This document shows, piece after piece, positions 11,548-57,899 of a stretch of 64,000 nucleotides of DNA; the stretch's first letter is position 1, and every line of letters starts with the position of its first letter. The notes beneath the pieces were generated by a model. That model was not told the DNA's origin, searched no databases, and saw only the letters and a list, made by a program, of their open reading frames with translations. A program made the position numbers and the translations under genes. The stretch comes from Candidatus Latescibacterota bacterium. GTDB lineage: Bacteria; Latescibacterota; UBA2968. The stretch spans positions 1,376,001 through 1,440,000 of the forward strand of contig OZ242010.1 in assembly GCA_965204745.1 (NCBI GenBank), read 5' to 3'.

Positions 11548-11696
11548 GCGCGTTCCCTCGTCTGTTCTGTGCGTGCAATGCGTTCGCGGGCAATTTTCCA
11601 CATTTCCACCCCAAACGCAAGCCCAAACTGGTTGACACATGATCGCGGATTGAGCAGATTGGCAAGAGGGGAGAGGTAAGATACTCTCTTAAAAGG

Positions 11697-12704
11697 TCAA
11701 GGGGTTTTCGGGGTGATTCGATAGAATTTTTCGCCCTCAAAATCTTGGTCATGGCGCAACATGCCCCAGATCGAATGGAGCAACTTTCGCATCACCGCAA
11801 CGATAGCCTGCAAAGGTTTCTTGCCGCGGGCGATGAGTTGGTCATAGAAGGCTTTGACATGGCCTTCGTGTCTGATGGCCACCCAGGCAGGCATATAGAG
11901 GGCATGGCGGAGGTACTTATTCCCGGTTTTCGAGATGCGTCTTTGTGGATTGGCGGTTCCGGATTGTTTGGGTTTGGGATCCAGGCCTGCATGTGCGACC
12001 CACTGGGGCGGTTGCATCTCCTCTGGCAAAAGGGTCAACTCGGCCAAGAGCCGCAAGGCACTCGTTTGCGCGATGCCAGGCGTCGAGCAGAGGCGTTGGT
12101 AGGCACGCTTGAGGGGCTCATCGTGCAAAACGAGATCGAGGGCTTGGCTTTCCAAGTATGCAATCCGGCGTTTGAAGTGTCGAATATTCACCTGAATATC
12201 GCGTGCGATGAGACGTGTGCTGCGGATGTGGTAGCTCTGCGCGTGGTTGCGGCTCTGTTCGCGGATGATCTCCTGCTTGAGTTGGTCAATGCGTCTGGTG
12301 AGGGCTTGCAGTTGAAGCCGTTGCTCGCTCGGCGCTTGCCAAGGCACAAAAGGCATGCGCTCGGCATAGTCGAGGATCAACAACGCATCCTTCGCATCCG
12401 TCTTCGCCCGTTGCATGCAGGCTTGGGCGTACTTGCTCATCGCTTTGGGATTGACGACCATGACCTTTGTGTGGCGATGCCGATGCAAGGCCAAGGCCAC
12501 CCCCAAACTGTAAAGCCCGGTCGCTTCGAGGCACACAGAGACCATGTGCCCGCCCTTCGTGAGCCACTTCAGCAACCGCTTATGCGCTTGGGGATCATTG
12601 GCAAAGGTCGCTTGCATGACAGCTTGTCCGGGTCTGGACAGGGCAACGGACAACGTGCGGGCACTGACATCAATGCCGGCAAAAGCGGGGTGAGATTTCG
12701 ACAT
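11697..12704 (-). CDS. IS110 DEDD recombinase/transposase
   Basis: GIDVS, CLEATG, KTDAKDA (DEDD) and GLDP..KQSG (catalytic Ser region); GGAGG RBS before MSKSH. Confidence 0.95.
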   Translation of the reverse strand: MSKSHPAFAGIDVSARTLSVALSRPGQAVMQATFANDPQAHKRLLKWLTKGGHMVSVCLEATGLYSLGVALALHRHRHTKVMVVNPKAMSKYAQACMQRAKTDAKDALLILDYAERMPFVPWQAPSEQRLQLQALTRRIDQLKQEIIREQSRNHAQSYHIRSTRLIARDIQVNIRHFKRRIAYLESQALDLVLHDEPLKRAYQRLCSTPGIAQTSALRLLAELTLLPEEMQPPQWVAHAGLDPKPKQSGTANPQRRISKTGNKYLRHALYMPAWVAIRHEGHVKAFYDQLIARGKKPLQAIVAVMRKLLHSIWGMLRHDQDFEGEKFYRITPKTP

Positions 12705-12772
12705 GGGGGCCTCCTGTGATGAGGGGGTTGTAAGGGATCTGGTGCGCGCTCGGGGTCGCGTCCCGACCATTG

Positions 12773-12955
12773 ACGCCAAGTCTACCGGTCTTGTATATGC
12801 AGCCTCAAGGGGCTTAGATACTCTTCGGCATAGACCCGGCGGTCGGGGGGCCTATCTTACCTACAAGGTCATCGCCTTCAAGAGGGGCCGGCCTTCCCCG
12901 AGCCGGGCATCAAGATGGCTTATCTCGATACGAGGGCGCAACTCCTAATTAACCC
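12773..12955 (-). ncRNA. Predicted bridge RNA of IS110 copy 1 (ends approximate)
   Basis: Same sequence as 49130-49312; target- and donor-binding internal loops match the flanks. Confidence 0.8.
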
Positions 12956-13107
12956 TTACTTCCAAGATACAAGAGGGGAGACGCAAGACGTAAGAGGCAA
13001 GAGGCAAGAGGGGTGGCCTTCTCATGTCTTGCCTCTCACCTTTCACCTTTTTGGGCGATGCGTGGTGCTCGCCCGAAGATACAAGCGTCTGGACTGGGGA
13101 GTATCAA

Positions 13108-30004: not shown

Positions 30005-30631
30005 GGCGTTGTTGCATAAATGTTGTCGTGGCTAAGTTCGTCCCTTTCCCGCTAGATTTAAGCCCCTCTTTCTATGGGATAGGACACGGGTTTCGCGCTC
30101 ATCATCAGGCGATTGAGCACCGCACATCCTAACCGCGCTTCCACATTCAAATCGCCCTGTCGCCGGCAGAGGGTCGTATGATCGGGCACGCGCAAAGCCA
30201 CCCCCATCAACGCCAGGATGGACGTGAGAAACCCCTCGGTTTGACGCAGGGGCAAGGCAGAGACCAAGCGCACCATCAACGCCGTTTGAATAGCCAAATC
30301 TGAAAAGGTGTTTTGCCTCCCCCGTTGCGTTGGCCCTTGATGGTACCACCCCCGAAGAGCTTGCGGCGTGATCCAAAACGTCAGACTGCCCCGCTGCTTG
30401 AGACCGGCCTCGTAGGCCGCCCAGTTCCGAACCCGATAGACAGGCTCACAGCGCGGGCGACGAAGGCGACGAGGGGCCTTGACGGCGGTCTTGGAAGCGG
30501 TTATCTTGGGCATGACAGGTTCCTGGTGAGAAAGGGTGAGTGGTTTCGGTGCTCCATATGCCCAATCTACGAAGGAGCCTGTCTTTTTGCAATCCCAACT
30601 CGCAGGCAATAGCGATTTATGCAACAACGCC
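30005..30631 (-). mobile_element. Internally deleted IS5-family (IS903-group) element, 627 bp
   Basis: Perfect 17-bp TIR GGCGTTGTTGCATAAAT; 9-bp direct repeat GTTGTCAGT on both sides. Confidence 0.9.
30058..30513 (-). pseudogene. IS903-type transposase lacking its DDE core
   Basis: YRVRNWAAYEAGLKQRGSLTFW...LPLRQTEGF...PDHTTLCRR joined in frame to the C-terminal EARLGCAVLNRL. Confidence 0.85.
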
Positions 30632-30713
30632 GTTGTCAGTGGTCAGTGGTCAGTGGTCAGTGGTCAGTCCTCTCAACCCCCAGTCCCGCTCGTGGCTAAA
30701 CCATCTACGTCTT

Positions 30714-31892
30714 ATGGAATCCGAACGCAATATTCTCGATCACCTTTCCGTTCTCGCACGTTGGCGGCGGATGATTTTTTTTTGTGTTTTTGCGGTCACG
30801 CTGGTCACGGCCGGGATTTCCCTGATCTTGCCCAAAGCGTACCGTGCGTATGCCACGGTCTATCCCCCGCAGGAAACCGGCAGTGGCCTTGGCGGGTTGT
30901 CTGCCCTGTTGCAAGAACTGCCCATCAACCTGATGGGCTTGGGCGGCGCGGCCATATCCGCGATGGAATTTGTACCTGTGGTGGAAAGCGAAAGCGTGCG
31001 TTTGGCCGTTGCCAAGCGGTTTGACTTGGGCGCGCACTACGAGGCCAGTCACCAGAGCGAGTTGCTCGACATGATCGCCCAACGCCTGATCATCGACCTC
31101 TCGCGCGAGCAATTTCTCACCATTTCCTACGAAGCCGACACCCCTGAACGCGCGGCGATGTTGACCAATGCCTTTGTCGAGGAACTCGAAAACGCCCTCC
31201 AGCAGCGCAACCAGCAACAGACGCGCACGTACCTCGCCTATCTCACAGAACGGCTCAAAGAAGCGGAACGAGACATGCTCGATGCCGAGCGACGGTATCG
31301 GGATTTTCAGAACGAGCACATGGTCTTAAACGTAGAGGCCCAAGCCACGACCCAGTTGGAAATCGCGTCCACGCTCATCAGCCCGCTCGCAGAGTTGATC
31401 GTCAAGCGCGACGTGCAAGCGCAACTGATGACCGCAGACAATCCCAAACTCAAAGCCCTCGACCTCGAAATCCAAACCACGCGCCAAGTGCTCGACGATT
31501 TGCTCATGGGACAATTCCCGGACACCCTGAACACCGCGGACCCCTCGGCGCAACTGCCACCGGTTTTCAAACCCTTTCGGCACCTGCCCGACTTGGGCCT
31601 GACCGCGTTGCAACACCTCCGGGAGATTCAAATCCAAAACGCCATCTATCAATTCGTCAAACAAGAGTACGAAAAGACCCGGTTTGAAGATGAAAAAGGC
31701 AGCCATCTCGTCATCGTCTTAGACCACGCCCGACCTCCGGACACGCGCAGCTATCCCCGCCGCACCCTCATGGTCGGCCTCGCCGGCGGGCTTAGTCTGA
31801 CATTGAGTTGCGTGCTGGCCTTTGTCTTTGAAGCGATGCGGAACTTGACTCCGGACAACCGGGCGAAACTCGAGGCCATTGGAAAAAGGTAA
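30714..31892 (+). CDS. Wzz/GumC-type polysaccharide chain-length determinant
   Basis: N-terminal TM plus PKAYRA, coiled-coil periplasmic region, VLDHARPP..RSYPRR plus C-terminal TM; stop abuts IS110 copy 2. Confidence 0.85.
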   Translation: MESERNILDHLSVLARWRRMIFFCVFAVTLVTAGISLILPKAYRAYATVYPPQETGSGLGGLSALLQELPINLMGLGGAAISAMEFVPVVESESVRLAVAKRFDLGAHYEASHQSELLDMIAQRLIIDLSREQFLTISYEADTPERAAMLTNAFVEELENALQQRNQQQTRTYLAYLTERLKEAERDMLDAERRYRDFQNEHMVLNVEAQATTQLEIASTLISPLAELIVKRDVQAQLMTADNPKLKALDLEIQTTRQVLDDLLMGQFPDTLNTADPSAQLPPVFKPFRHLPDLGLTALQHLREIQIQNAIYQFVKQEYEKTRFEDEKGSHLVIVLDHARPPDTRSYPRRTLMVGLAGGLSLTLSCVLAFVFEAMRNLTPDNRAKLEAIGKR

Positions 31893-31909
31893 GATACTCT
31901 CTTAAAAGG

Positions 31910-32917
31910 TCAAGGGGTTTTCGGGGTGATTCGATAGAATTTTTCGCCCTCAAAATCTTGGTCATGGCGCAACATGCCCCAGATCGAATGGAGCAACTTT
32001 CGCATCACCGCAACGATAGCCTGCAAAGGTTTCTTGCCGCGGGCGATGAGTTGGTCATAGAAGGCTTTGACATGGCCTTCGTGTCTGATGGCCACCCAGG
32101 CAGGCATATAGAGGGCATGGCGGAGGTACTTATTCCCGGTTTTCGAGATGCGTCTTTGTGGATTGGCGGTTCCGGATTGTTTGGGTTTGGGATCCAGGCC
32201 TGCATGTGCGACCCACTGGGGCGGTTGCATCTCCTCTGGCAAAAGGGTCAACTCGGCCAAGAGCCGCAAGGCACTCGTTTGCGCGATGCCAGGCGTCGAG
32301 CAGAGGCGTTGGTAGGCACGCTTGAGGGGCTCATCGTGCAAAACGAGATCGAGGGCTTGGCTTTCCAAGTATGCAATCCGGCGTTTGAAGTGTCGAATAT
32401 TCACCTGAATATCGCGTGCGATGAGACGTGTGCTGCGGATGTGGTAGCTCTGCGCGTGGTTGCGGCTCTGTTCGCGGATGATCTCCTGCTTGAGTTGGTC
32501 AATGCGTCTGGTGAGGGCTTGCAGTTGAAGCCGTTGCTCGCTCGGCGCTTGCCAAGGCACAAAAGGCATGCGCTCGGCATAGTCGAGGATCAACAACGCA
32601 TCCTTCGCATCCGTCTTCGCCCGTTGCATGCAGGCTTGGGCGTACTTGCTCATCGCTTTGGGATTGACGACCATGACCTTTGTGTGGCGATGCCGATGCA
32701 AGGCCAAGGCCACCCCCAAACTGTAAAGCCCGGTCGCTTCGAGGCACACAGAGACCATGTGCCCGCCCTTCGTGAGCCACTTCAGCAACCGCTTATGCGC
32801 TTGGGGATCATTGGCAAAGGTCGCTTGCATGACAGCTTGTCCGGGTCTGGACAGGGCAACGGACAACGTGCGGGCACTGACATCAATGCCGGCAAAAGCG
32901 GGGTGAGATTTCGACAT
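31910..32917 (-). CDS. IS110 DEDD recombinase/transposase
   Basis: Translation identical to copy 1. Confidence 0.95.
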   Translation of the reverse strand: MSKSHPAFAGIDVSARTLSVALSRPGQAVMQATFANDPQAHKRLLKWLTKGGHMVSVCLEATGLYSLGVALALHRHRHTKVMVVNPKAMSKYAQACMQRAKTDAKDALLILDYAERMPFVPWQAPSEQRLQLQALTRRIDQLKQEIIREQSRNHAQSYHIRSTRLIARDIQVNIRHFKRRIAYLESQALDLVLHDEPLKRAYQRLCSTPGIAQTSALRLLAELTLLPEEMQPPQWVAHAGLDPKPKQSGTANPQRRISKTGNKYLRHALYMPAWVAIRHEGHVKAFYDQLIARGKKPLQAIVAVMRKLLHSIWGMLRHDQDFEGEKFYRITPKTP

Positions 32918-32985
32918 GGGGGCCTCCTGTGATGAGGGGGTTGTAAGGGATCTGGTGCGCGCTCGGGGTCGCGTCCCGACCATTG

Positions 32986-33168
32986 ACGCCAAGTCTACCG
33001 GTCTTGTATATGCAGCCTCAAGGGGCTTAGATACTCTTCGGCATAGACCCGGCGGTCGGGGGGCCTATCTTACCTACAAGGTCATCGCCTTCAAGAGGGG
33101 CCGGCCTTCCCCGAGCCGGGCATCAAGATGGCTTATCTCGATACGAGGGCGCAACTCCTAATTAACCC
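32986..33168 (-). ncRNA. Predicted bridge RNA of IS110 copy 2 (ends approximate)
   Basis: Same sequence as 49130-49312. Confidence 0.8.
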
Positions 33169-33240
33169 TTACTTCCAAGATACAAGAGGGGAGAGGCAAG
33201 AGGCAAGAGGCAAGAGGGGAGAAGTGAGATGGGAGTTTAT

Positions 33241-47326: not shown

Positions 47327-49023
47327 ATGACAAAAAAACAAAAAAATCGGCGGACGAGGAACCGTCAGGGGCGTGCCAACACCGCCAAACCGCAGACCCC
47401 GGTGCAGGTAGCGGCGAGCGATCACCCTGTTAAGCGTTGGCTGAAGCGGTTGTTCCTGCCCGGGGATAATGCTGTTGAGAACGCGATCTTCCTCGCTCTG
47501 ATACTGGTCGGTGCCGCAGTTCGCCTGATTTTGCTCGGCGACATTCCCGCAGGGTTGAACCAAGACGAGGCCGCTCTGGGCTACGACGCCTGGGCCTTGT
47601 TGGAATACGGCATTGACCGGCACGGTTATCACAACCCGGTGCATTTTGTGTCTTGGGGAAGCGGGCAGAACGCCCTGTACGGCTATTTCTCGATGCCGTT
47701 CATCAAGGCGATGGGCTTGAACATCGTGTCCATCCGTCTCGCGCAGGCCCTGTTGGGCGTCGTCTCCTTGTTCGCAATGTACGCCATTGGTCGGCGTCTC
47801 GCAGATGGGCGATTCGCCCTGTTCGCCTTGTTTGTGTTGACCATCTCGCCGTGGCACGTCATGATGAGCCGATGGGGGTTGGAGTCCAACTTATTGCCGC
47901 CATTGTTGCTGTTCAGTTTCTCCTTTTTGCTTCGGGGATTGATCACCTCGCGCTACATCATCCCCGCGTTCTTCCTGCTGTCCCTTTCCCTGTACGCGTA
48001 TGGCACGGCTTACTTCTTTGTGCCGATCTTTACACTCGGGGTTCTCGTCTATGGGATGAAGCACCGCCAGATCGACGTCCGGCACTGGGGAGGCGGCTTG
48101 GTCGTGATGATCGTGACCGCGATTCCCATTGGCTTGTTCTTGGCGGTCAATTTGTTCGAATGGGAGGCCATAGAAACGCCGCTGTTCTCCATGCCGCGCT
48201 ACACTGGCGTGCCGAGGTATGCCACAACTGCCGCGTTCTTCAGTGCGGATTTTTTTTTCAAATTTGGCAGAACGGCCTGCACTTAGGGCCACTGATAGCG
48301 ACTGGACACGGCGAACCTATTTACAATGCCCTGCCCGAGTTCGGATATTTCTACCGCTGGGGCGGTTTTCTCGTCTCTGTGGTCGGCACGGGCTTTCTCG
48401 TGCGCGATGGCGTGCGGGGGCGCCGCCCCGAAAACCTGCTCGTGCTCCTGTGGCTGGTGGTCGCGCTTTTGACGTCAATAACGGTGAAGCCGAACATCAA
48501 TCGGATCAACGTCATATTCTTTCCGCTACTTCTGTGCACTGCGTACGGGCTGTACACCGCGCTTGGCGAGCAGTACAGGTCCATAGTGAAAATCGCGGGT
48601 GTCGTCGCGCTGGCGTATCTGATCTTTTCATTTGCGGCTTTCACCAAGACGTACTTCAGCGACTACCGCTGGCAACAAGTGCAATATTTCGCTCCTTCTT
48701 ATGGCGAGGCATTTGCACACATCGCACGCCATGCCAACGAGCGCGAAACCATCTATCTGACGGGCTACCAACTCCATACATTTGCGTTGTTCTACGCCCG
48801 CCCGGATCCCCGCGTGTATATGGAGACAGCGGATATTCCGAATCCAACAGCGGAATTTCAATACGTCAAATCCTTTGACCGATACGTATTCGGCATTGAC
48901 GCAGAGGCGCGGAAGAAGGGCAACGTATTCCTCATCGACAACCGGGAATTGCAATTTTTTTCCCCATCCGACTTCATCATCGTCAGGTTTCACCATTATA
49001 GCGCGGCGTACCGCCGTCGATAA
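47327..49023 (+). pseudogene. Glycosyltransferase paralogue C2, frameshifted at a T9 tract (48250-48258)
   Basis: N-half in ORF 47225..48286 and C-half in ORF 47653..49023, both colinear with C1; switch falls at GATTTTTTTTTCAA. Confidence 0.8.
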
Positions 49024-49129
49024 TACATGGACAGGCCCCTGTGCCTGTCCCTACGACTGATAGGGGAAACCACTGACCCTTGAGAAGGATAGCGCGGTTG
49101 CCTTCTCCCCTCTTGTATCTTGGAAGTAA

Positions 49130-49312
49130 GGGTTAATTAGGAGTTGCGCCCTCGTATCGAGATAAGCCATCTTGATGCCCGGCTCGGGGAAGGCCGGCCC
49201 CTCTTGAAGGCGATGACCTTGTAGGTAAGATAGGCCCCCCGACCGCCGGGTCTATGCCGAAGAGTATCTAAGCCCCTTGAGGCTGCATATACAAGACCGG
49301 TAGACTTGGCGT
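49130..49312 (+). ncRNA. Predicted bridge RNA of IS110 copy 3 (ends approximate)
   Basis: Target loop: LTG CCCCTCT 49198-49204, inner hairpin AAGG/CCTT, RTG AGGTAAG 49223-49229. Donor loop: LDG AGAGTATCT 49261-49269, inner hairpin AGCC/GGCT, RDG ATACAAG 49289-49295, closed by GCCGGGTCTA/TAGACTTGGC. Confidence 0.85.
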
Positions 49313-49380
49313 CAATGGTCGGGACGCGACCCCGAGCGCGCACCAGATCCCTTACAACCCCCTCATCACAGGAGGCCCCC

Positions 49381-50388
49381 ATGTCGAAATCTCACCCCGC
49401 TTTTGCCGGCATTGATGTCAGTGCCCGCACGTTGTCCGTTGCCCTGTCCAGACCCGGACAAGCTGTCATGCAAGCGACCTTTGCCAATGATCCCCAAGCG
49501 CATAAGCGGTTGCTGAAGTGGCTCACGAAGGGCGGGCACATGGTCTCTGTGTGCCTCGAAGCGACCGGGCTTTACAGTTTGGGGGTGGCCTTGGCCTTGC
49601 ATCGGCATCGCCACACAAAGGTCATGGTCGTCAATCCCAAAGCGATGAGCAAGTACGCCCAAGCCTGCATGCAACGGGCGAAGACGGATGCGAAGGATGC
49701 GTTGTTGATCCTCGACTATGCCGAGCGCATGCCTTTTGTGCCTTGGCAAGCGCCGAGCGAGCAACGGCTTCAACTGCAAGCCCTCACCAGACGCATTGAC
49801 CAACTCAAGCAGGAGATCATCCGCGAACAGAGCCGCAACCACGCGCAGAGCTACCACATCCGCAGCACACGTCTCATCGCACGCGATATTCAGGTGAATA
49901 TTCGACACTTCAAACGCCGGATTGCATACTTGGAAAGCCAAGCCCTCGATCTCGTTTTGCACGATGAGCCCCTCAAGCGTGCCTACCAACGCCTCTGCTC
50001 GACGCCTGGCATCGCGCAAACGAGTGCCTTGCGGCTCTTGGCCGAGTTGACCCTTTTGCCAGAGGAGATGCAACCGCCCCAGTGGGTCGCACATGCAGGC
50101 CTGGATCCCAAACCCAAACAATCCGGAACCGCCAATCCACAAAGACGCATCTCGAAAACCGGGAATAAGTACCTCCGCCATGCCCTCTATATGCCTGCCT
50201 GGGTGGCCATCAGACACGAAGGCCATGTCAAAGCCTTCTATGACCAACTCATCGCCCGCGGCAAGAAACCTTTGCAGGCTATCGTTGCGGTGATGCGAAA
50301 GTTGCTCCATTCGATCTGGGGCATGTTGCGCCATGACCAAGATTTTGAGGGCGAAAAATTCTATCGAATCACCCCGAAAACCCCTTGA
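49381..50388 (+). CDS. IS110 DEDD recombinase/transposase
   Basis: Translation identical to copies 1 and 2. Confidence 0.95.
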   Translation: MSKSHPAFAGIDVSARTLSVALSRPGQAVMQATFANDPQAHKRLLKWLTKGGHMVSVCLEATGLYSLGVALALHRHRHTKVMVVNPKAMSKYAQACMQRAKTDAKDALLILDYAERMPFVPWQAPSEQRLQLQALTRRIDQLKQEIIREQSRNHAQSYHIRSTRLIARDIQVNIRHFKRRIAYLESQALDLVLHDEPLKRAYQRLCSTPGIAQTSALRLLAELTLLPEEMQPPQWVAHAGLDPKPKQSGTANPQRRISKTGNKYLRHALYMPAWVAIRHEGHVKAFYDQLIARGKKPLQAIVAVMRKLLHSIWGMLRHDQDFEGEKFYRITPKTP

Positions 50389-50717
50389 CCTTTTAAGAGA
50401 GTATCTTGCCTCTCCCGTCTCCCCTCTCACCAAAGGGGGATTGGGCAGGGCGGACTGACCACTGACCCCTTGAGAAGGATAGCGCGGTTGCCTTCTCCTT
50501 CTTGTATCTTTGGGCGAGCACAGGGGCATCGCCCCTACACATATCGCTCACCTTTGAACTGGCTATCGCCTTTTGTGCCTTTGAACTGGCTGTCGCTCAG
50601 TTGTACCCCGCTCGTGCCTTTTGTGGCCTCCCCTCTTGCCTCTCCCGTCTCCCCTCTCACCAAAGGGGGATTGGGCGGGGCGGACTGACCACTGACCACT
50701 GACTACTGACTACTCCC

Positions 50718-53700
50718 ATGCGCTATATCCACACCATCTACATCGTCTTGATTCTCGCGACGTGCGTCTTCGCCCAAGCCTCTATCGTCACTATCGCAGG
50801 GGGTGGGTTGGAAGATGGCGACAATGTGCGGGCAACGGATGTGATGCTCAACCAGCCGCGGGGCATTGCCTTAGATGCGCGGGGCAACCTCTACATCGCG
50901 GATACGGACCACCATCGCATTCGGCGGGTCGATGCGGCGACGGGCATCATCACCACTGTCGCGGGCACGGGCGAACCCGGGTTCTCAGGCGATAGCGGGC
51001 CGGCAACACGCGCCATGCTCAACGCGCCGCAAGGCATTGCGGTTGACAGCGCGGGCAATATCTATCTCAGTAGCGGAGGCGCGAATGACGCGCAAAATCG
51101 CCGGGTTCGGCGCGTCGATCCCGCGGGCATTATCACCACTGTCGCGGGCACGGGCGAAGGGGGGTTCAACGATGGCGTGCCCGCCCTGGAAGCCACGTTC
51201 TACGACATTGTCGCGCTGGCGATGTTGGGCGACGCCGCGCTGTTGATTTCCGATGCCGGGGATCAAACCGGGCAAGGCAACAACCGAGTGCGACAACTCA
51301 ATTTGACGCGCAATACCGTCGGCACCGTGGCCGGCAATGGCAACGCCCGGGCGTCCAATATCCAAGATGGGGGGCTGGCGCACCGCGCGGGATTAACCCC
51401 TGGGCAACTCGCCATCGCGGACGATGGAGACCTGCTGATTGCAGACGTTGCCAATGGGCGCGTCCGCCGGGTCAGCCGGGCCATGCAAGACACGACCGTT
51501 GTCGTCGTCATCACCACCGTGGCCGGGCGAGAGGCGAGTCCTGAAGAAATGCTTTACAAGGGCGATGGGGGGGCCGCGACGAGTGCGTTGTTCTCCAACC
51601 CGTCGGGCGTTGCGATAGACCAGCGCGGCAATATTTATATCGCGGACACGGGCAACCACCGCATCCGCATCGTGGAAGCGGAAACCGGCGTCGTCTTGCC
51701 CCTGGCGGGCACCGGCACCGAGGGCGTGGGGGCCGAAGGCGCGTTGGGCCTGTTGTCCGATTTGCAAGGCCCCGCGCACATGATGATCGACGGCGATGGC
51801 GATCTCCTCTTTATCGACAACGACCGCATCCGAAAATTGCGCGACCCAGGGTTTCGCATGCCCCTCTTCAACGCGCCTGCCGAGGACATCGACTTTGGCA
51901 CGGTCAGCATCGGAGATCCCGCCGTGCGCGGCCTGGCCGTTGAAAACCGCGGCAACCTGCCCGTCCGCATCGACACCGTCGTTTCCGACAATGCTGGGTT
52001 CCGCATCTTATCCGCCTTGCCCTTTGATTTGGGCGTGGCGCAACTGGCAGAGATCGAACTGGCGTTTGACCCCATCCGCGAAGGGCGAGCGCAGGGGATC
52101 GTCACCCTGACCACAGACGACCCGCGCACGCCTTCTGCCACAGTCCGCGTCCAAGGCACAGCAGAATCCGCAGCTATCGGCTTGTTCCCGCCGGACGTCT
52201 TGGTTTTTGACCCCACGGCTATCGGGCAAGCGCAATCCTCGTCCGTCCGCATTTCCAACTTGGGCGCGGGCGTGCTGGTCGTTTCCCATGCCGCGACGAC
52301 CGACTCGCAATTCGTCGTGGCACAAACCGACACCTTGCGAATCGCCTCTGGGCAAAGCCAATCCCTCCGAATCGCATTTCACCCGACGGCCGAAAACGCG
52401 CAACGCGCAACGCTCACCATTTTTAGCAACGCGCCCGCAACCCCGGCGGCCACGCTCCGGTTGCAGGGCTTGGGACAACGCGCCCGGGCAGATGGATTCG
52501 TCGATGAGGCGGCCAACGCGGGCCTAGGCGACCTCGGCGCGGGATTTGGCGCGGCCTGGGCGGATTACGACCGCGACGGGGATCTCGACCTGTCCGTCGT
52601 CCGCAGCAACGAACCCAACCGCTTGTACCGCAACGATGGCGACCGGTTTACCGACGTCGCCCCAACACTGGGCATCGCCGATCCCGGCGACGGCAGCGCG
52701 GGAATCTGGGGCGATGTGGACCGCGACGGGGACTTGGATCTCTACGTCACCAATTTCGGCGAACCCAACCGCTTGTTTCGCAATGATGGCGACCGGTTTA
52801 CCGACGTCGCCCCGGCCCTGGGCATCGCCGATCCCGGCGACGGATACGGCGCGGCTTGGGCGGATTACGACCGCGACGGGGATTTGGATCTCTACGTCGC
52901 GAATTTTGGCGCGAACCGGTTTTACCAAAACGATGGCGACGGCTTTGTCGAGCGTGCCGATTCTTTGGGCCTCGCGGACGCGGAAAGCGGGATTCAGCCG
53001 GCTTGGGGCGATTTTGACAACGATGGGGATCCGGATCTCTTTTTGGCAAACAGCGGCCCCAACCGCTTGTTTCGCAATGACGGCGACCGGTTCACAGCGA
53101 TTGAAAACAGCTTCAGCCCGACCGATGCCGGGCCGAGTTTTGGCGCGGCTTGGGGCGATTTTGACAATGATGGGGATCTCGATTTGTTCATCCCCTACTT
53201 TGGCGCGCCCAACCGATTGTACGTCAATGACGGCGGCAGGTTCACGGATCGCGCGCCGGCCCTTGGCCTCGACCACGATGGGCGCGGCAGAGGCGCGGCT
53301 TGGGGCGATTTTGACAACGATGGATTTCTCGATCTCTACGTCACCAACAGGGAGCAGCCGAATTTGTATTACAAAAATCGAGATGGGCAGGAGTTCATCG
53401 AATTGGCCGATACCTTGGGCCTCGCGCTCGATGCGAACAGCAGGGGCCTCGCGCTCGCGGATTACGACTCGGATGGCAAGTTGGATCTGTACGTCGCGGT
53501 GCAAAATGGGGCCGATGCCCTGTATCGCAACCGCGAAGCCGCTGGCAACTGGCTCGGCATTCGCCTGCGCGGCACGCAAAGTAGCGCGGACGCGATAGGC
53601 ACGCGCGTTGAAATTGTCTATGGCGACGACCGCCGCGCCATCCGCGAGATTTCCGGGGGGGCGTCCTTCTTATCTCAAGACGCGCCCATCGCTCGGTTCG

Positions 53701-56558: not shown

Positions 56559-57006
56559 GAGGGGACCTATCCCCCGGCCCCGTTATTCGCTTCGCTCATT
56601 GTAGGCTACGCCTGTGCCTACGAGGAAAGGGGAGTAAAGTTCCTTGATGGCTTCTAAGCTCTGGTTGCTCTGATGGCGTTTTGCGAGGGGACCTATCCCC
56701 CGGCCCCGTTATTCGCTTCGCTCATTGTAGGCTACGCCTGTGCCTACGAGGAAAGGGGAGTAAAGCACCTTTGATGGCTTCTCGCTCTGGTTTCTCTGAT
56801 GGCGTTGCGCGAGGGGACCTATCCCCCGGCCCCTTTCCTACAAGGAAAGGGGAGTAAAGTGCCTTTGATGGCTTATATCTCTAGTTGCTCTGATGGCGTT
56901 GCGCGAGGGCATAAAGCGATTAAATATCCCTCACACCATCCCCCCGCAAAACCCATCCGCGTTCCCCCCTTCCTTGCAGGAAGGGGGGTTAGGGGGGTAG
57001 GTCCCG
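56559..57006. repeat. Cluster of MITE hairpin modules, about 126-bp tandem units
   Basis: gaggggacctatcccccggcccc at about 56559, 56685, 56811; same modules as 8441-8902; fragment also at about 34936-34998. Confidence 0.8.
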
Positions 57007-57015
57007 CCATTCCCC

Positions 57016-57880
57016 CTTGTATCTTGGAAGTAAGGGTTAATTAGGAGTTGCGCCCTCGTATCGAGACGAGACATCTTGATGCCCGGCTCGGGGAAGGCCG
57101 GCCCCCCTTGAAGGCGATGACCTTGTCAGGAAGAGAGGCCCCCCGACCGCCGAGTCTATGCCGAAGCGTATCTAAGTCCATTGAGGCTGCATAGACAAGA
57201 CCGGTAGACTTGGCGTGAAAAGGTCGGGACTCGAGCGCACATCAGACCCCCTTAGACCCCTCATCACAGGAGGCCCCCATGTCGAACTCTCAACCCGCTT
57301 TTGCCGGCATTGATGTCAGTGCCCGCAACTTGTCCGTTGCCCTGTCCCTGCCTGGACAAGGTGTCATGCAAACGACCTTTGACAATGATTCCCGGGCGCA
57401 CAAGCGGTTGCTGAAGTGGCTCACCAAGGGCGGGCACATGGTCTCTGTCTGCCTCGAAATGACCGGATTTTATAGCCTGGAGGTGGCCTTGGCCTTGCAT
57501 CGGCATCGCCGCACGCAGGTCATGGTCATCAATCCCAAGGCGATGAGCAAGTACGCCCAAGCGTGCATGCAAGGGACAAAGACGGATGCGAAGGATGCGT
57601 TGTTGATCCTCGATTATGCCGAGCACATGCCCTTTGTGCCTTGGCAACCGCCGAGCGAGCACCTGCTCCAACTGCAAGCCCTGACCACACGGATTAACCA
57701 ACTCAAGCAGGAGATCAGCCGCGAACAGAGCCACAGCCACGCGCAGGGCTACCACACCCGGAGCACACGTCTCATCGCACGCGATATTCAGGTGAATATT
57801 CGATACCTCAAACGCCGGATTGCATACTTGGAAGGCCAAGCCCTCGATCTCGTTTTGCAGGACGAGACCCAAAAGCGTAG
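57016..57880 (+). mobile_element. Divergent, 3'-truncated IS110 (copy 4)
   Basis: Left end CT-TGTATCTTGGAAGTAAGGG identical to copies 1-3; scattered substitutions; homology lost near 57880. Confidence 0.92.
57034..57216 (+). ncRNA. Predicted variant bridge RNA with altered guides (ends approximate)
   Basis: LTG CCCCCCT 57102-57108, RTG CAGGAAG 57127-57133, LDG AGCGTATCT 57165-57173, RDG AGACAAG 57193-57199; stems conserved. Confidence 0.8.
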
Positions 57881-57899
57881 CCTACAACGAAGCGAGTAA
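57279..57899 (+). pseudogene. Truncated IS110 recombinase (RuvC-like DEDD and coiled coil only)
   Basis: 206 aa, colinear with the first ~200 aa of the intact copies; Ser-bearing C-terminal domain missing. Confidence 0.9.

Follow-up and report, generated by a model that had tools for sequence, protein, structure and literature searches.

An IS110-family insertion sequence in a Latescibacterota genome and the match between its predicted bridge-RNA guides and its insertion sites in heptamer repeats

The locus at 49112-50406 raises the question of how an insertion sequence present in several identical copies selects its sites, and whether its long non-coding left end specifies them. The locus lies in the window, which is the whole 64,000-nt stretch of DNA that was analysed, and the genome to which it belongs measures 5.48 Mb. 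We consider it highly probable that the element is an IS110-family insertion sequence (IS110 subgroup, IS621-like) that moves by bridge-RNA-guided recombination. It is a well-documented natural case, in the little-studied phylum Latescibacterota, of a mechanism described in 2024, and it represents a clear further example and not a new mechanism; NCBI's pipeline already names the family RNA-guided.

Element copies, borders and recombinase

Blastn of the element against the window detected three 1295-bp copies with 100% identity, as stated in the preliminary description, and a fourth, truncated copy that was missing from its list. The flanks were as claimed there, namely TCTCCCCT-CT...CT-TACCT for both minus-strand copies and TCTCCCCT-CT...CT-TGCCT for the copy at 49112-50406. 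Apart from the shared target, the copy-to-copy identity ended at the 1295-bp borders. The features of the copies and the gene are as follows.

49112-50406, + strand: whole IS110-family element, whose 1295 bp include the CT core copies at either end (49112-49113 and 50405-50406)
11679-12973, - strand: second identical copy, site TCTCCCCT-CT-TACCT, between a sigma-54 response-regulator gene and an SNF2/PLD helicase gene
31892-33186, - strand: third identical copy, site TCTCCCCT-CT-TACCT, at the point where a Wzz-like ORF (30540-31892) ends
57016-57889, + strand: truncated diverged copy, 89.8% identity over element positions 1-880 (blastn), with a different target loop
49107-49111, + strand: left target (LT), CCCCT
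50407-50411, + strand: right target (RT), TGCCT, which can pair with the right target guide only through one rU.dG wobble (TACCT in the other two window copies)
50398-50404, + strand: left donor (LD), AGAGTAT, located in the element's right end
49381-50388, + strand: recombinase gene of 335 codons and a stop codon, preceded by the Shine-Dalgarno sequence AGGAGG at 49370-49375

The left end comprised 269 nt up to the ATG at 49381, and the right end comprised 18 nt after the stop codon, plus the core. The element ends, CTTGTATC and GAGTATCT, were not inverted copies of one another when compared by eye. All 52 full-length copies in the genome had CT...CT borders, with a 2-nt core and without a long target duplication. 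Since target and donor both carry TCTT around the core, this genome considered alone leaves an ambiguity of up to 2 nt in the borders and in the core position within TCTT. Two related genomes share TCT and CTT, and intersecting the border ambiguities of the three genomes fixed the core as CT.

The assignment of the gene product to the IS110 family was borne out by matches to PF01548 (1.2e-24, residues 9-154), PF02371, the C-terminal Tnp domain (4.8e-20, residues 203-287), and the NCBIfam model for the "IS110 family RNA-guided transposase", NF033542, whose cutoff of 140 bits was exceeded with a score of 213.8. The best match among solved structures was the ISCro4 chain 9t56 (E 7.6e-40, 140.4 bits, residues 7-326), and the IS621 chain 8wt6 was matched with E 5.8e-36, a moderate similarity of 127.6 bits that spans about 320 residues. 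In both alignments, the DEDD and Ser-Gly residues coincided with their counterparts; counted on the alignment with IS621, D12, E60, D103, D106, and S248-G249 lay opposite D11, E60, D102, D105, and S241-G242 of IS621, respectively, whose DEDD and Ser residues have roles described in PMC11208158. D12, E60, D103, S248, and G249 were invariant in 20 homologues with 55-87% identity, and D106 was at least 90% conserved. The predicted catalytic residues D12, E60, D103, D106, and S248-G249 were all kept.

Among the 52 full-length copies in the genome, 30 were 100% identical across all 1295 bp and were located at distinct loci with unrelated distal flanks, and the 335-codon frame was open in 51. About 20 fragments and decayed copies were also present, and sub-families at 96% and 89% identity remained distinct. 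Because no distal flank was common to any two of the 52 copies, they represent separate insertions. One copy, g6, was a mosaic, indicating that sequence exchange between copies does occur. Megablast against the plasmid collection gave no match to the element, and a DNA search of 20 relatives' genomes gave none either; a protein search found relatives in 2 of the 20 same-genus genomes, where the elements were 79-84% identical. Among 5,426 E. coli genomes searched with blastn, none had DNA similarity to the element, and the comparison with IS621 rests on papers and on the alignment of PDB proteins. A search of the literature for Latescibacter together with IS110 found no paper; the supplementary orthologue tables of Durrant might already list the element or its relatives.

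Left-end structure and the four guides

The preliminary description had placed two domains, each with a stem, an internal loop, and a hairpin, in the left non-coding end. The stems and hairpins were found at the claimed places with support from covariation. An Rfam search gave a best score of 19.5 bits against a cutoff of 91, and because the Rfam version used seemingly contains no bridge-RNA family, we built our own covariance model, R1, from 16 close sequences. R1 matched 49150-49332 in the element and 57054-57237 in the truncated copy (213.8 bits), and among 55 more distant loci it found 51 at E <= 3e-8, the match lying directly in front of the gene; of the other four, two matched weakly and two not at all.

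In the alignment of 47 distinct relatives from several phyla, 89.4% of the cells in the six helices were paired, compared with 29-51% when the partners were slid. Having been fitted to the structure of the model, the alignment is biased in favour of that structure. Both sides changed in 23 of the 31 pairs, a number reached by 0 of 500 shuffles. Helices 1-3, in the target domain, were 81-98% paired with changes on both sides in 8 of 14 pairs, and helices 4-6, in the donor domain, were 84-99% paired with such changes in 15 of 17. Both domains were reproduced by the MFE fold, and since its energy was ordinary (z = -1.39), the structure is supported by covariation and not by thermodynamics. A small hairpin, CTCG-TAT-CGAG, which is a candidate for an IS621-like 5' stem-loop, was not conserved in one relative. 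The domains and the guides within them are as follows.

49184-49242, + strand: target-binding domain, with the outer stem TCGGGG-AA-GGCC / GGCC-CCCCGA, an internal loop, and the inner hairpin AAGG-CGATGA-CCTT (49207-49220)
49198-49205, + strand: left target guide (LTG), CCCCTCTT (RNA CCCCUCUU), the sense of LT (5 nt), the core CT, and the first RT base
49223-49229, + strand: right target guide (RTG), AGGTAAG (RNA AGGUAAG), the reverse complement of CT plus TACCT, followed by AUA to 49232
49245-49310, + strand: donor-binding domain, with the stems GCCGGGUCU/AGACUUGGC and GCCG/CGGU, an internal loop, and the hairpin AGCC-CCUUGA-GGCU (49271-49284)
49261-49269, + strand: left donor guide (LDG), AGAGTATCT (RNA AGAGUAUCU), identical to the final 9 nt of the element (7 nt of LD plus the core)
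49289-49295, + strand: right donor guide (RDG), ATACAAG (RNA AUACAAG), the reverse complement of CT plus TGTAT, followed by AC to 49297

Loop 1 had been proposed to correspond to the target and loop 2 to the circle junction AGAGTAT-CT-TGTAT, and all four guides were indeed found at the positions that this implies. The guide geometry was 5+2+1 for the LTG and 2+5 for the RTG, which gives 12 specified bp. In the main sub-family, the LDG and the RDG matched at 9/9 and 7/7 positions, respectively; in the truncated copy and in both related genomes, the RDG matched at 6/7. The 5' and 3' strands of the target loop in the truncated copy were GGCCCCCCTTG and GTCAGGAAGAGA, respectively.

Matches between loops and sites might arise by chance with the help of low-complexity pyrimidine repeats, given that the target is of low complexity and present in hundreds of arrays and that the TCTT common to target and donor blurs the borders. 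However, each guide string occurred once in the left end at its structurally expected place, and not one mononucleotide shuffle out of 200,000 contained all four (multiplying the single frequencies gives about 1.4e-9). Moreover, the guide changes described below were tracked by site changes in four guide classes of this genome and in two other genomes, and the CT core was fixed by the three-genome intersection. Coincidence is therefore an explanation that we hold to be next to impossible.

The guide strings exist in the DNA too, and they could in principle work there, with the recombinase or a host factor reading sub-terminal motifs and the hairpins being irrelevant. In the alignment, 63 G.U pairs were counted against 40 A.C cells, an excess so modest that covariation alone does not prove the RNA strand. 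On the other hand, the compensatory changes hold the helices together across the 47 relatives while the loop strings vary freely, and the protein is a clear homologue of the IS621 recombinase, which was found by experiment and cryo-EM to bind the same scaffold as RNA (PMC11208160 and PMC11208158). Reading at the level of DNA appears very improbable on these grounds, and the guides are treated below as parts of a putative bridge RNA.

The AUA that follows the RTG was complementary to the donor TAT (positions 5-7), and it appears to occupy the place of the handshake guide of IS621 as given in PMC11208158, where A81/U82 correspond to the AU found here. At the putative donor-loop handshake position, AC was present here and GU in the two related genomes, the latter agreeing with G166/U167 of IS621 in the same source. 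The first of these bases was A with a target T7 here and G with a target C7 in one related genome, which is the co-variation pattern published in PMC11208158; the A also pairs with T7 of its own element. The second base pairs with neither target nor element.

Insertion sites and natural changes of the guides

The sites were located within tandem repeats with a 7-nt unit, in which TCTCCCC precedes TCTTACC or TCTTGCC; hundreds of such arrays were present in the genome. When the 52 full-length copies were compared with their own guides, 23 matched at 12/12 positions, 20 had one wobble (rG.dT or rU.dG), and 9 had hard mismatches. As to whether other copies are inserted at guide-unrelated sites, a possibility that had been named as evidence against guided insertion, 43 of the 52 had no hard mismatch to their own guides. 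The remaining nine consisted of four with LT TACCT, two with RT CCCGT, g6 with three positions off, and two with a single mismatch. The TACCT and CCCGT flanks could be half-matched insertions, which are reported in 10.64898/2026.08.31.748434, or could reflect the loss of one adjoining 7-nt unit after insertion.

The 52 separate insertions make the genome a natural specificity experiment that reveals tolerated mismatches. Perfect sites, CCCCTCTTACCT, were occupied in 20 of 25 cases (80%), and sites with one rU.dG wobble, CCCCTCTTGCCT, in 17 of 82 (21%; Fisher p = 1.2e-7). This difference between TACCT and TGCCT agrees with the earlier suggestion that a U.G wobble explains TGCCT. One rU.dG at the second RT base was tolerated in nature at about one quarter of the perfect-site occupancy, and mismatches at the two outermost LT bases were tolerated as well. 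As a gauge of intergenic preference, the open frame across reconstructed empty sites had a median of 221 codons compared with 457 at random places, a comparison that is blurred by the lack of stop codons in pyrimidine arrays. No strand or replication bias of the heptamer arrays and element copies was evident. The idea that the element created the arrays, whose 7-nt period equals core plus RT, was dropped after neither a mechanism nor evidence was found for it.

Close relatives revealed how few guide changes shift the element to a new repeat variant. In sub-family g5, three guide changes (C>U, U>C, and A>G) were accompanied by the site TCCCT-CT-CACCT, which is a perfect match, and g7-g9 carried the guides CGCCU... 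and AAGUAAG with sites of the CGCCT-CT-TACTT type. The 79-84% identical elements of the two same-genus genomes had other guides and correspondingly different sites. The split of the roughly 12 specified bases between left and right guides also varied, being 5+2+1 / 2+5 here and 7+2 / 2+3 in the 79%-identical relative. In a gammaproteobacterial set of six copies, whose protein was 52% identical, the model placed the loops at GTTTAAACCTG and TTT-CT-AAATTAC (reverse complement), and the flanks that they read were ..TTAAAC-CT in 3/6 copies and CT-AAATT in 4/6.

Over 77 copies, own guides matched at 665 of 770 non-core positions, whereas shuffled labels gave 537.7 +/- 10.6; in this genome alone, the corresponding values were 480 of 520 and 459.7 +/- 2.8. 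The observed value was reached by 0 of 10,000 shuffles in each case, and these figures overstate the significance because the copies are related and thus not independent.

At least five co-resident target programmes, which would belong to a single bridge-RNA lineage, were present in the genome: CCCCT-CT-TACCT, TCCCT-CT-CACCT, CGCCT-CT-TACTT, TGCCT-CT-TACTT, and, in a decayed lineage, CCCCC-CT-TCCTG. The guides of the decayed sub-family fitted a REP-like palindrome. Of the 21 genus genomes searched, only 2 contained both heptamer arrays and heptamer-directed elements. We offer as a tentative and rather doubtful reading that each of the five programmes is tuned to a variant of the host repeat, that exhaustion of targets drives the retargeting of guides, and that element and microsatellite-like arrays co-evolve while copies swap guides, as in g6.

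Circle junction, mobility and known systems

By analogy with IS621, we infer that the element produces the RNA and a circle with a promoter at its junction, that strand exchange follows the IS621 chemistry, and that the element is active at present. On exit, its right end would be joined to its left end at a single CT core, forming the circle. This junction would bring together two promoter-like motifs.

50385-50390, + strand: -35-like TTGACC, overlapping the stop codon (50386-50388)
49116-49121, + strand: -10-like TATCTT, which meets TTGACC only across the circular junction with an 18-nt spacer (consensus match only)

As a consensus match only, TTGACC-18-TATCTT agreed at 9/12 positions across the junction, and no such match was found at the three integrated left junctions. 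The related genomes had TTGACC or TTGAAC as the -35 box and a 17-nt spacer. This arrangement fits the statement in PMC11208160 that a promoter is reconstituted by the circle. Transcription from the junction into the left end would yield an approximately 190-nt bridge RNA, and the mRNA of the recombinase would probably be produced as well. The donor loop would then grip the junction, with AGAGUAUCU reading the bottom strand of AGAGTAT-CT and AUACAAG reading the top strand of CT-TGTAT. Likewise, the target loop would grip the 12-bp chromosomal site, with CCCCUCUU reading the bottom strand of CCCCT-CT-T and AGGUAAG reading the top strand of CT-TACCT. A DEDD/Ser recombinase tetramer would finally swap the strands at the CT core by means of D12, E60, D103, D106, and S248.

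Present-day activity is suggested by the 30 copies that are identical over 1295 bp at distinct loci and by the 51 intact frames among 52. The same copies might be the remains of a past burst of a genuine bridge-RNA element that is immobile now, or might have been homogenised by gene conversion or assembly polishing. Such a reading is favoured by the fragments and decayed copies, by the exchange of sequence seen in the g6 mosaic, and by the donor-loop handshake A, whose equivalent in IS621, G166A, strongly lowered recombination (PMC11208158), as well as by the circle junction, which gave 0 matches in the assembly. The contigs of four runs, compared with 48600-50900, contained no empty-site or circle joint; these contigs break at repeat borders and have no bearing on activity. 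The sole contig joint across the element (49063 to 50443) fused two copies of the flanking repeat and was not an empty site. Immobility is opposed, however, by the unrelated distal flanks of the 30 identical copies, the open frames, and the near saturation of the perfect sites, and blanket homogenisation by the persistence of the 96% and 89% sub-families. We judge an element that no longer moves to be unlikely, and prefer one that is probably active.

IS621 of E. coli, an IS110-subgroup element and the founding bridge-RNA recombinase, shares with the present element both protein domains, the catalytic DEDD/Ser-Gly residues, and the CT core. In both, the guide RNA (predicted here) is encoded in a long left end and has first a target loop and then a donor loop, each formed by a stem, an internal loop, and a hairpin; the left guides carry the top-strand sequence and the right guides its reverse complement, in each case with the core included. 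Both also use repeats as targets, and the candidate promoter motifs here would be split between the right and left ends as is the promoter of IS621. The IS621 donor, given in the preliminary description as differing by one base, is ACAGTAT-CT-TGTAT compared with AGAGTAT-CT-TGTAT here, and its string ACAGTATCTTGTAT is contained in a dDNA oligo in the methods of PMC13396178. The IS621-type architecture with a CT core was borne out. The guides differ in length from those in IS621, being 5+2+1 / 2+5 compared with 7+2 / 2+2. IS621 has a nine-base LTG, a four-base RTG, and the 11-bp target ATCAGGCCTAC according to PMC11208160, whereas 12 bp are specified here. The target of IS621 is a REP hairpin, and that of the present element is a tandem heptamer array.

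The element was also compared with ISCro4, which we take to be the orthologue engineered as IS622. ISCro4 (PDB 9t56) has the same domains but a different host and a distant sequence. For tool builders, the element adds a further orthologue whose RTG is long; there is no indication that it would perform better than those already screened, and its use in genome engineering is a hope and not a result.

ISPpu10 and ISPpu9 of Pseudomonas putida are IS110 elements whose copies reportedly all lie in one intergenic repeat family, and the target of the decayed sub-family here is likewise REP-like. ISPpu10 reportedly needs a hairpin in the target DNA besides base pairing, whereas the main heptamer targets here have no evident hairpin. 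The IS1111 subgroup with its seekRNA belongs to the same recombinase family and likewise has an RNA that reads target and donor. Its long non-coding end and its RNA are at the right end (PMC11208160), whereas the 269-nt end of the present element is on the left and only 18 nt plus the core are on the right.

Copies of the element and its recombinase

Three full copies and one truncated copy of the IS110-family element were located in the window, and the copy at 49112–50406 was analyzed together with its recombinase gene.

49112–50406 (+), full copy, 1295 bp
11679–12973 (−), full copy, 1295 bp
31892–33186 (−), full copy, 1295 bp
57016–57889, truncated copy ending after element position 880, 89.8% identity
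49381–50388, recombinase frame of 335 codons, with AGGAGG seven bases upstream

The three full copies, described in the preliminary description as apparently identical, were indeed the same at every base. Full copies start with CTTGTATC and end with GAGTATCT; those in the window were flanked by TCTCCCCT on the left and by TACCT (two copies) or TGCCT on the right. The genome, a single contig of 5,482,115 bp with 56.5% G+C, contained 52 full-length copies and about 20 fragments. Among the full copies, 30 were 100% identical, 7 were 99.1–99.9%, 8 were 96.1%, 1 was 95.8%, 1 was 94.8%, and 5 were 88.5–89.1% identical. No two of the 52 shared the sequence lying 60–160 nt from the element, indicating that they arose by separate insertions and not as parts of duplicated segments.

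Two of the three window copies were plainly intergenic, and the third abutted the end of a frame with a weak match to Wzz, a chain-length determinant (450 codons, 30540–31892, +). The last base of its stop codon is the first base of the copy at 31892–33186, and without the element the frame would continue through a heptamer array; the 3′ end of this gene may have been clipped by the insertion. An antisense open frame of 387 codons (49366–50529, −), which spans the whole recombinase gene, is probably a by-product of composition.

The recombinase contained the domains PF01548 (1.2e-24) and PF02371 (4.8e-20) and scored 213.8 bits (cutoff 140) with the NCBI curated model "IS110 family RNA-guided transposase"; the protein model is already named RNA-guided. 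Residues 7–326 matched the solved structures of the ISCro4 transposase (9t56, E 7.6e-40) and the IS621 transposase (8wt6, 5.8e-36). When correspondence was counted along the alignment, with correction for two extra N-terminal residues in the PDB chain, D12, E60, D103, D106, and S248-G249 aligned with D11, E60, D102, D105, and S241-G242 of IS621, which, according to PMC11208158, form a composite active site whose mutants lose recombination. In an alignment with 19 homologues (55–87% identity), D12, E60, D103, S248, and G249 were invariant and D106 was conserved in at least 90%. The frame was open in 51 of the 52 full copies, with a frameshift in the other.

Guides and target sites

Four guide strings were located in the non-coding left end.

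49198–49205, 5′ strand of the target loop, CCCCUCUU, equal in top-strand sense to the left target CCCCT, the core CT, and the first right-target base
49223–49229, 3′ strand of the target loop, AGGUAAG, reverse complement of CT-TACCT
49261–49269, 5′ strand of the donor loop, AGAGUAUCU, equal to the last nine element bases
49289–49295, 3′ strand of the donor loop, AUACAAG, reverse complement of CT-TGTAT, the first element bases

Each string occurred once in the left end, and none of 200,000 shuffles of the left end held all four; the earlier reading that the four guides match target and donor is upheld. According to PMC11208160, the bottom strand is read by the left guides of IS621 and the top strand by its right guides, with the core included in all four; the main sub-family follows the same published base-pairing scheme. 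The AUA after the right target guide is complementary to donor positions 5–7, and corresponds in place and sense to the IS621 handshake guide A81/U82. This genome by itself leaves TC, CT, and TT as possible cores, because TCTT is common to target and donor. In two other genomes of the same genus, TCT and CTT are common with the donor, and the core is therefore CT.

The sites of the element lay within tandem 7-nt repeats. The genome contained 656 arrays of at least three tandem units TCT[TC]NYB, with a maximum of 48 units (for example, window 50407–50440), and the main site extends across a TCTCCCC unit and the next unit, TCTTACC or TCTTGCC. Pyrimidine arrays were observed in the flanks of all three window copies. 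The perfect 12-mer CCCCTCTTACCT was unoccupied at 5 and occupied at 20 places, whereas the wobble site CCCCTCTTGCCT was unoccupied at 65 and occupied at 17 (80% versus 21% occupancy, Fisher p = 1.2e-7). The element favours the Watson-Crick site and has almost exhausted it, and given this difference the explanation of TGCCT by a U·G wobble is reasonable. A stricter three-unit pattern occurred 610 times here, 263 times in one same-genus genome, and 0–5 times in the other 19. Heptamer-directed elements were confined to the two array-rich genomes, two related genomes being too few for a test; a third genome, which has a related element, was almost free of such arrays, and the guides there read another site.

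The guides of each full copy were compared with its own flanks (n = 52). All 12 positions matched in 23 copies, a single G·T or U·G wobble was found in 20 (TGCCT for TACCT in 17 of these), and hard mismatches were found in 9 (one in two copies, two in four, and three in three). Minority sub-families with altered guides are the most telling cases, and had correspondingly altered sites. The g5 class differed from the main type by three guide changes, namely C to U at the first base of the left target guide, U to C at the post-core base, and A to G at one base of the right target guide, and its site TCCCT-CT-CACCT fitted these changes perfectly. Classes g7 and g9 carried the left guide CGCCU and the right guide AAGUAAG at sites CGCCT-CT-TACTT (two perfect fits, one wobble, and one single mismatch), and g8 carried UGCCU at TACCT-CT-TACTT, with one wobble.

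The related elements of the two same-genus genomes were 79–84% identical in DNA. One genome had guides UCC[U/C]C-CU and AGAAAAG with sites ending in CC[T/C]C-CT-TTTCT; the other had CUCGCCU-CU and GGGAG with 18 sites [CT]CT[CT][GA]CCT-CT-CCC. A matrix of guide class against site class had clear maxima on or beside the diagonal. Own guides fitted 665 of 770 non-core positions in 77 copies, against 537.7 ± 10.6 with shuffled labels, and 480 of 520 against 459.7 ± 2.8 in this genome alone (0 of 10,000 shuffles reaching the observed value in either case), figures that are descriptive and not probabilities because the copies are related.

Along with three or more other decayed copies, the truncated copy in the window lay at ..CATTCCCC-CT or ..AGTTCCCC-CT. 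The guides of the truncated copy predict CCCCC-CT-TCCTG, and all 94 occurrences of this 12-mer belonged to a REP-like palindrome family, CCCCCCTTCCTGCGAGGAAGGGGGG, with about 130 genomic copies, conserved flanks (GGGACCTACCCCCCT.. and ..AACGGTGAGCGG), and a variant at window 56960–56990. An older branch of the family thus seems to have had another repeat as its target.

Next to the pyrimidine arrays there was often a second tandem heptamer family, with ACTGACC or ACTGACA units (window 50446–50470 and 49078–49090), as well as G-rich blocks such as GAAGGGGGTTGGGCGGGG, and the intergenic regions look as if assembled from a few short repeat modules. Just downstream of the element, at window 50460–50512, lay a second copy of its left-flanking repeat (ACTGACCCCTTGAGAAGGATAGCGCGGTTGCCTTCTCC), followed by CTTGTATCTTTGG, which resembles a 13-nt left-end stub of another sub-family.

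Structure of the left end and comparison with IS621

The predicted fold of the 269-nt left end consisted of two consecutive domains, each with an outer stem, a large internal loop, and a small hairpin; it reproduced both domains of the preliminary description, and comparative covariation agreed. Since the folding energy was unremarkable (z = −1.39), the structure was tested by comparison of relatives. A covariance model, with the previously described structure, to which a 4-bp stem was added in the donor domain, was seeded with 16 close sequences from the sub-families of this genome and the two same-genus genomes. It was searched in 55 loci encoding relatives with 44–64% protein identity, with record titles including Latescibacterota, Poribacteria, beta-, gamma-, and deltaproteobacteria, Myxococcota, Gemmatimonadota, Acidobacteriota, and others. 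In 51 of the 55, the model matched immediately upstream of the gene (E ≤ 3e-8); two of the remaining four had weak partial matches, and two had no match to the model. Among 47 distinct rows, standard pairs filled 89.4% of cells, against 29–51% when partners were slid by 1–3 columns; two-sided changes affected 23 of 31 pairs, against 14.9 ± 1.9 in shuffles (0 of 500 reaching 23); and the covariation score was 0.305 against 0.124. This alignment was fitted to the model and is biased towards the structure, but the margin is nonetheless large. In the close alignment, differences were concentrated in the loop strands and the scaffold was nearly invariant.

In a distant, independent set of six copies from one gammaproteobacterial record (52% protein identity), the loops that the model placed, GTTTAAACCTG and TTT-CT-AAATTAC (reverse complement), read the flanks, which were GTTAAAC-CT in three copies and CT-AAATT in four.

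The left guide here covers five target bases, the core, and one further base, and the right guide covers the core and five bases (12 specified bp), whereas PMC11208160 gives IS621 a left guide of nine bases, a right guide of four, and a target of 11 bp, with longer right guides in some orthologues. A 79%-identical relative uses 7+2 and 2+3, its core shifted by one base with the length of the 5′ loop strand unchanged, indicating that the guide split is labile. Unlike IS621, the present element has T at positions 7 and 10 in both target and donor, TCTT being shared, and its targets are tandem heptamers instead of REP hairpins. The donor-loop handshake bases are AC in all sub-families here, GU in the two relatives, and G166/U167 in IS621. 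Pairing of this A with T7 of the element itself is possible; according to PMC11208158, the corresponding IS621 change G166A lowered activity, yet the present lineage has 52 copies. Target T7 here suits the A, and target C7 in one relative suits the G, a co-variation already published.

Both the mechanism and the architecture have already been published, as has guide/target co-variation on a large scale among natural IS110 elements. No paper joining Latescibacteria with IS110 was found, supplementary orthologue tables aside. The element offers useful natural history, with many copies, several guide programmes in one genome, a gradient of site occupancy, and a labile guide register.

Probable mechanism and mismatched copies

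By homology with IS621, the element would be copied or cut out as a circle, whose junction would set TTGACC (50385–50390), which overlaps the stop codon, and TATCTT (49116–49121) 18 nt apart. A pair of this type was not found at the three integrated left junctions; the −35 box was kept in relatives, with a spacer of 17 nt. The RNA would then bridge junction and site, and a recombinase tetramer would exchange the top and then the bottom strands at the core, as PMC11208158 describes for IS621. Later work reports weak RNA expression from integrated copies and excision less efficient than insertion (PMC13626964) and the possibility of copy-and-paste transposition (10.64898/2026.08.31.748434). The many identical copies would fit copy-and-paste transposition; for the present element this whole scheme is an inference.

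Among the mismatched copies, four had the left target TACCT for CCCCT and two had the right target CCCGT. One of the four stands second in a tandem pair (genome 1121591–1124182) with only TACCT between the members. The pair belongs to different sub-families (100% and 96.1% types), lies head to tail, and occupies two successive cores of a single array. Copy g6 (genome 602780–604074) had three guide/site misses and a site of the g5 type; it is a mosaic, nearer g7/g8 in its first 100 nt and nearer g4/g5 at positions 101–1000. This points to exchange between copies or to the action of another copy's RNA; probably the target loop was replaced after insertion, or g6 was placed by the RNA of another copy. 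The mismatches outside g6 may have arisen when just one half of the target loop guided insertion, as the 2026 preprint 10.64898/2026.08.31.748434 reports for IS621, or when one 7-nt unit next to the element was lost.

In two of three copies from a record titled Candidatus Latescibacterota (loci L076–L078, 54% protein identity), the left border was ..GCGC-AT-TGTATCT, the right border was GTAT-CT-AACGT, and the 5′ loop strand contained ..GCGCAUG. The left guide and left junction of these copies seem to carry AT, against CT on the right side.
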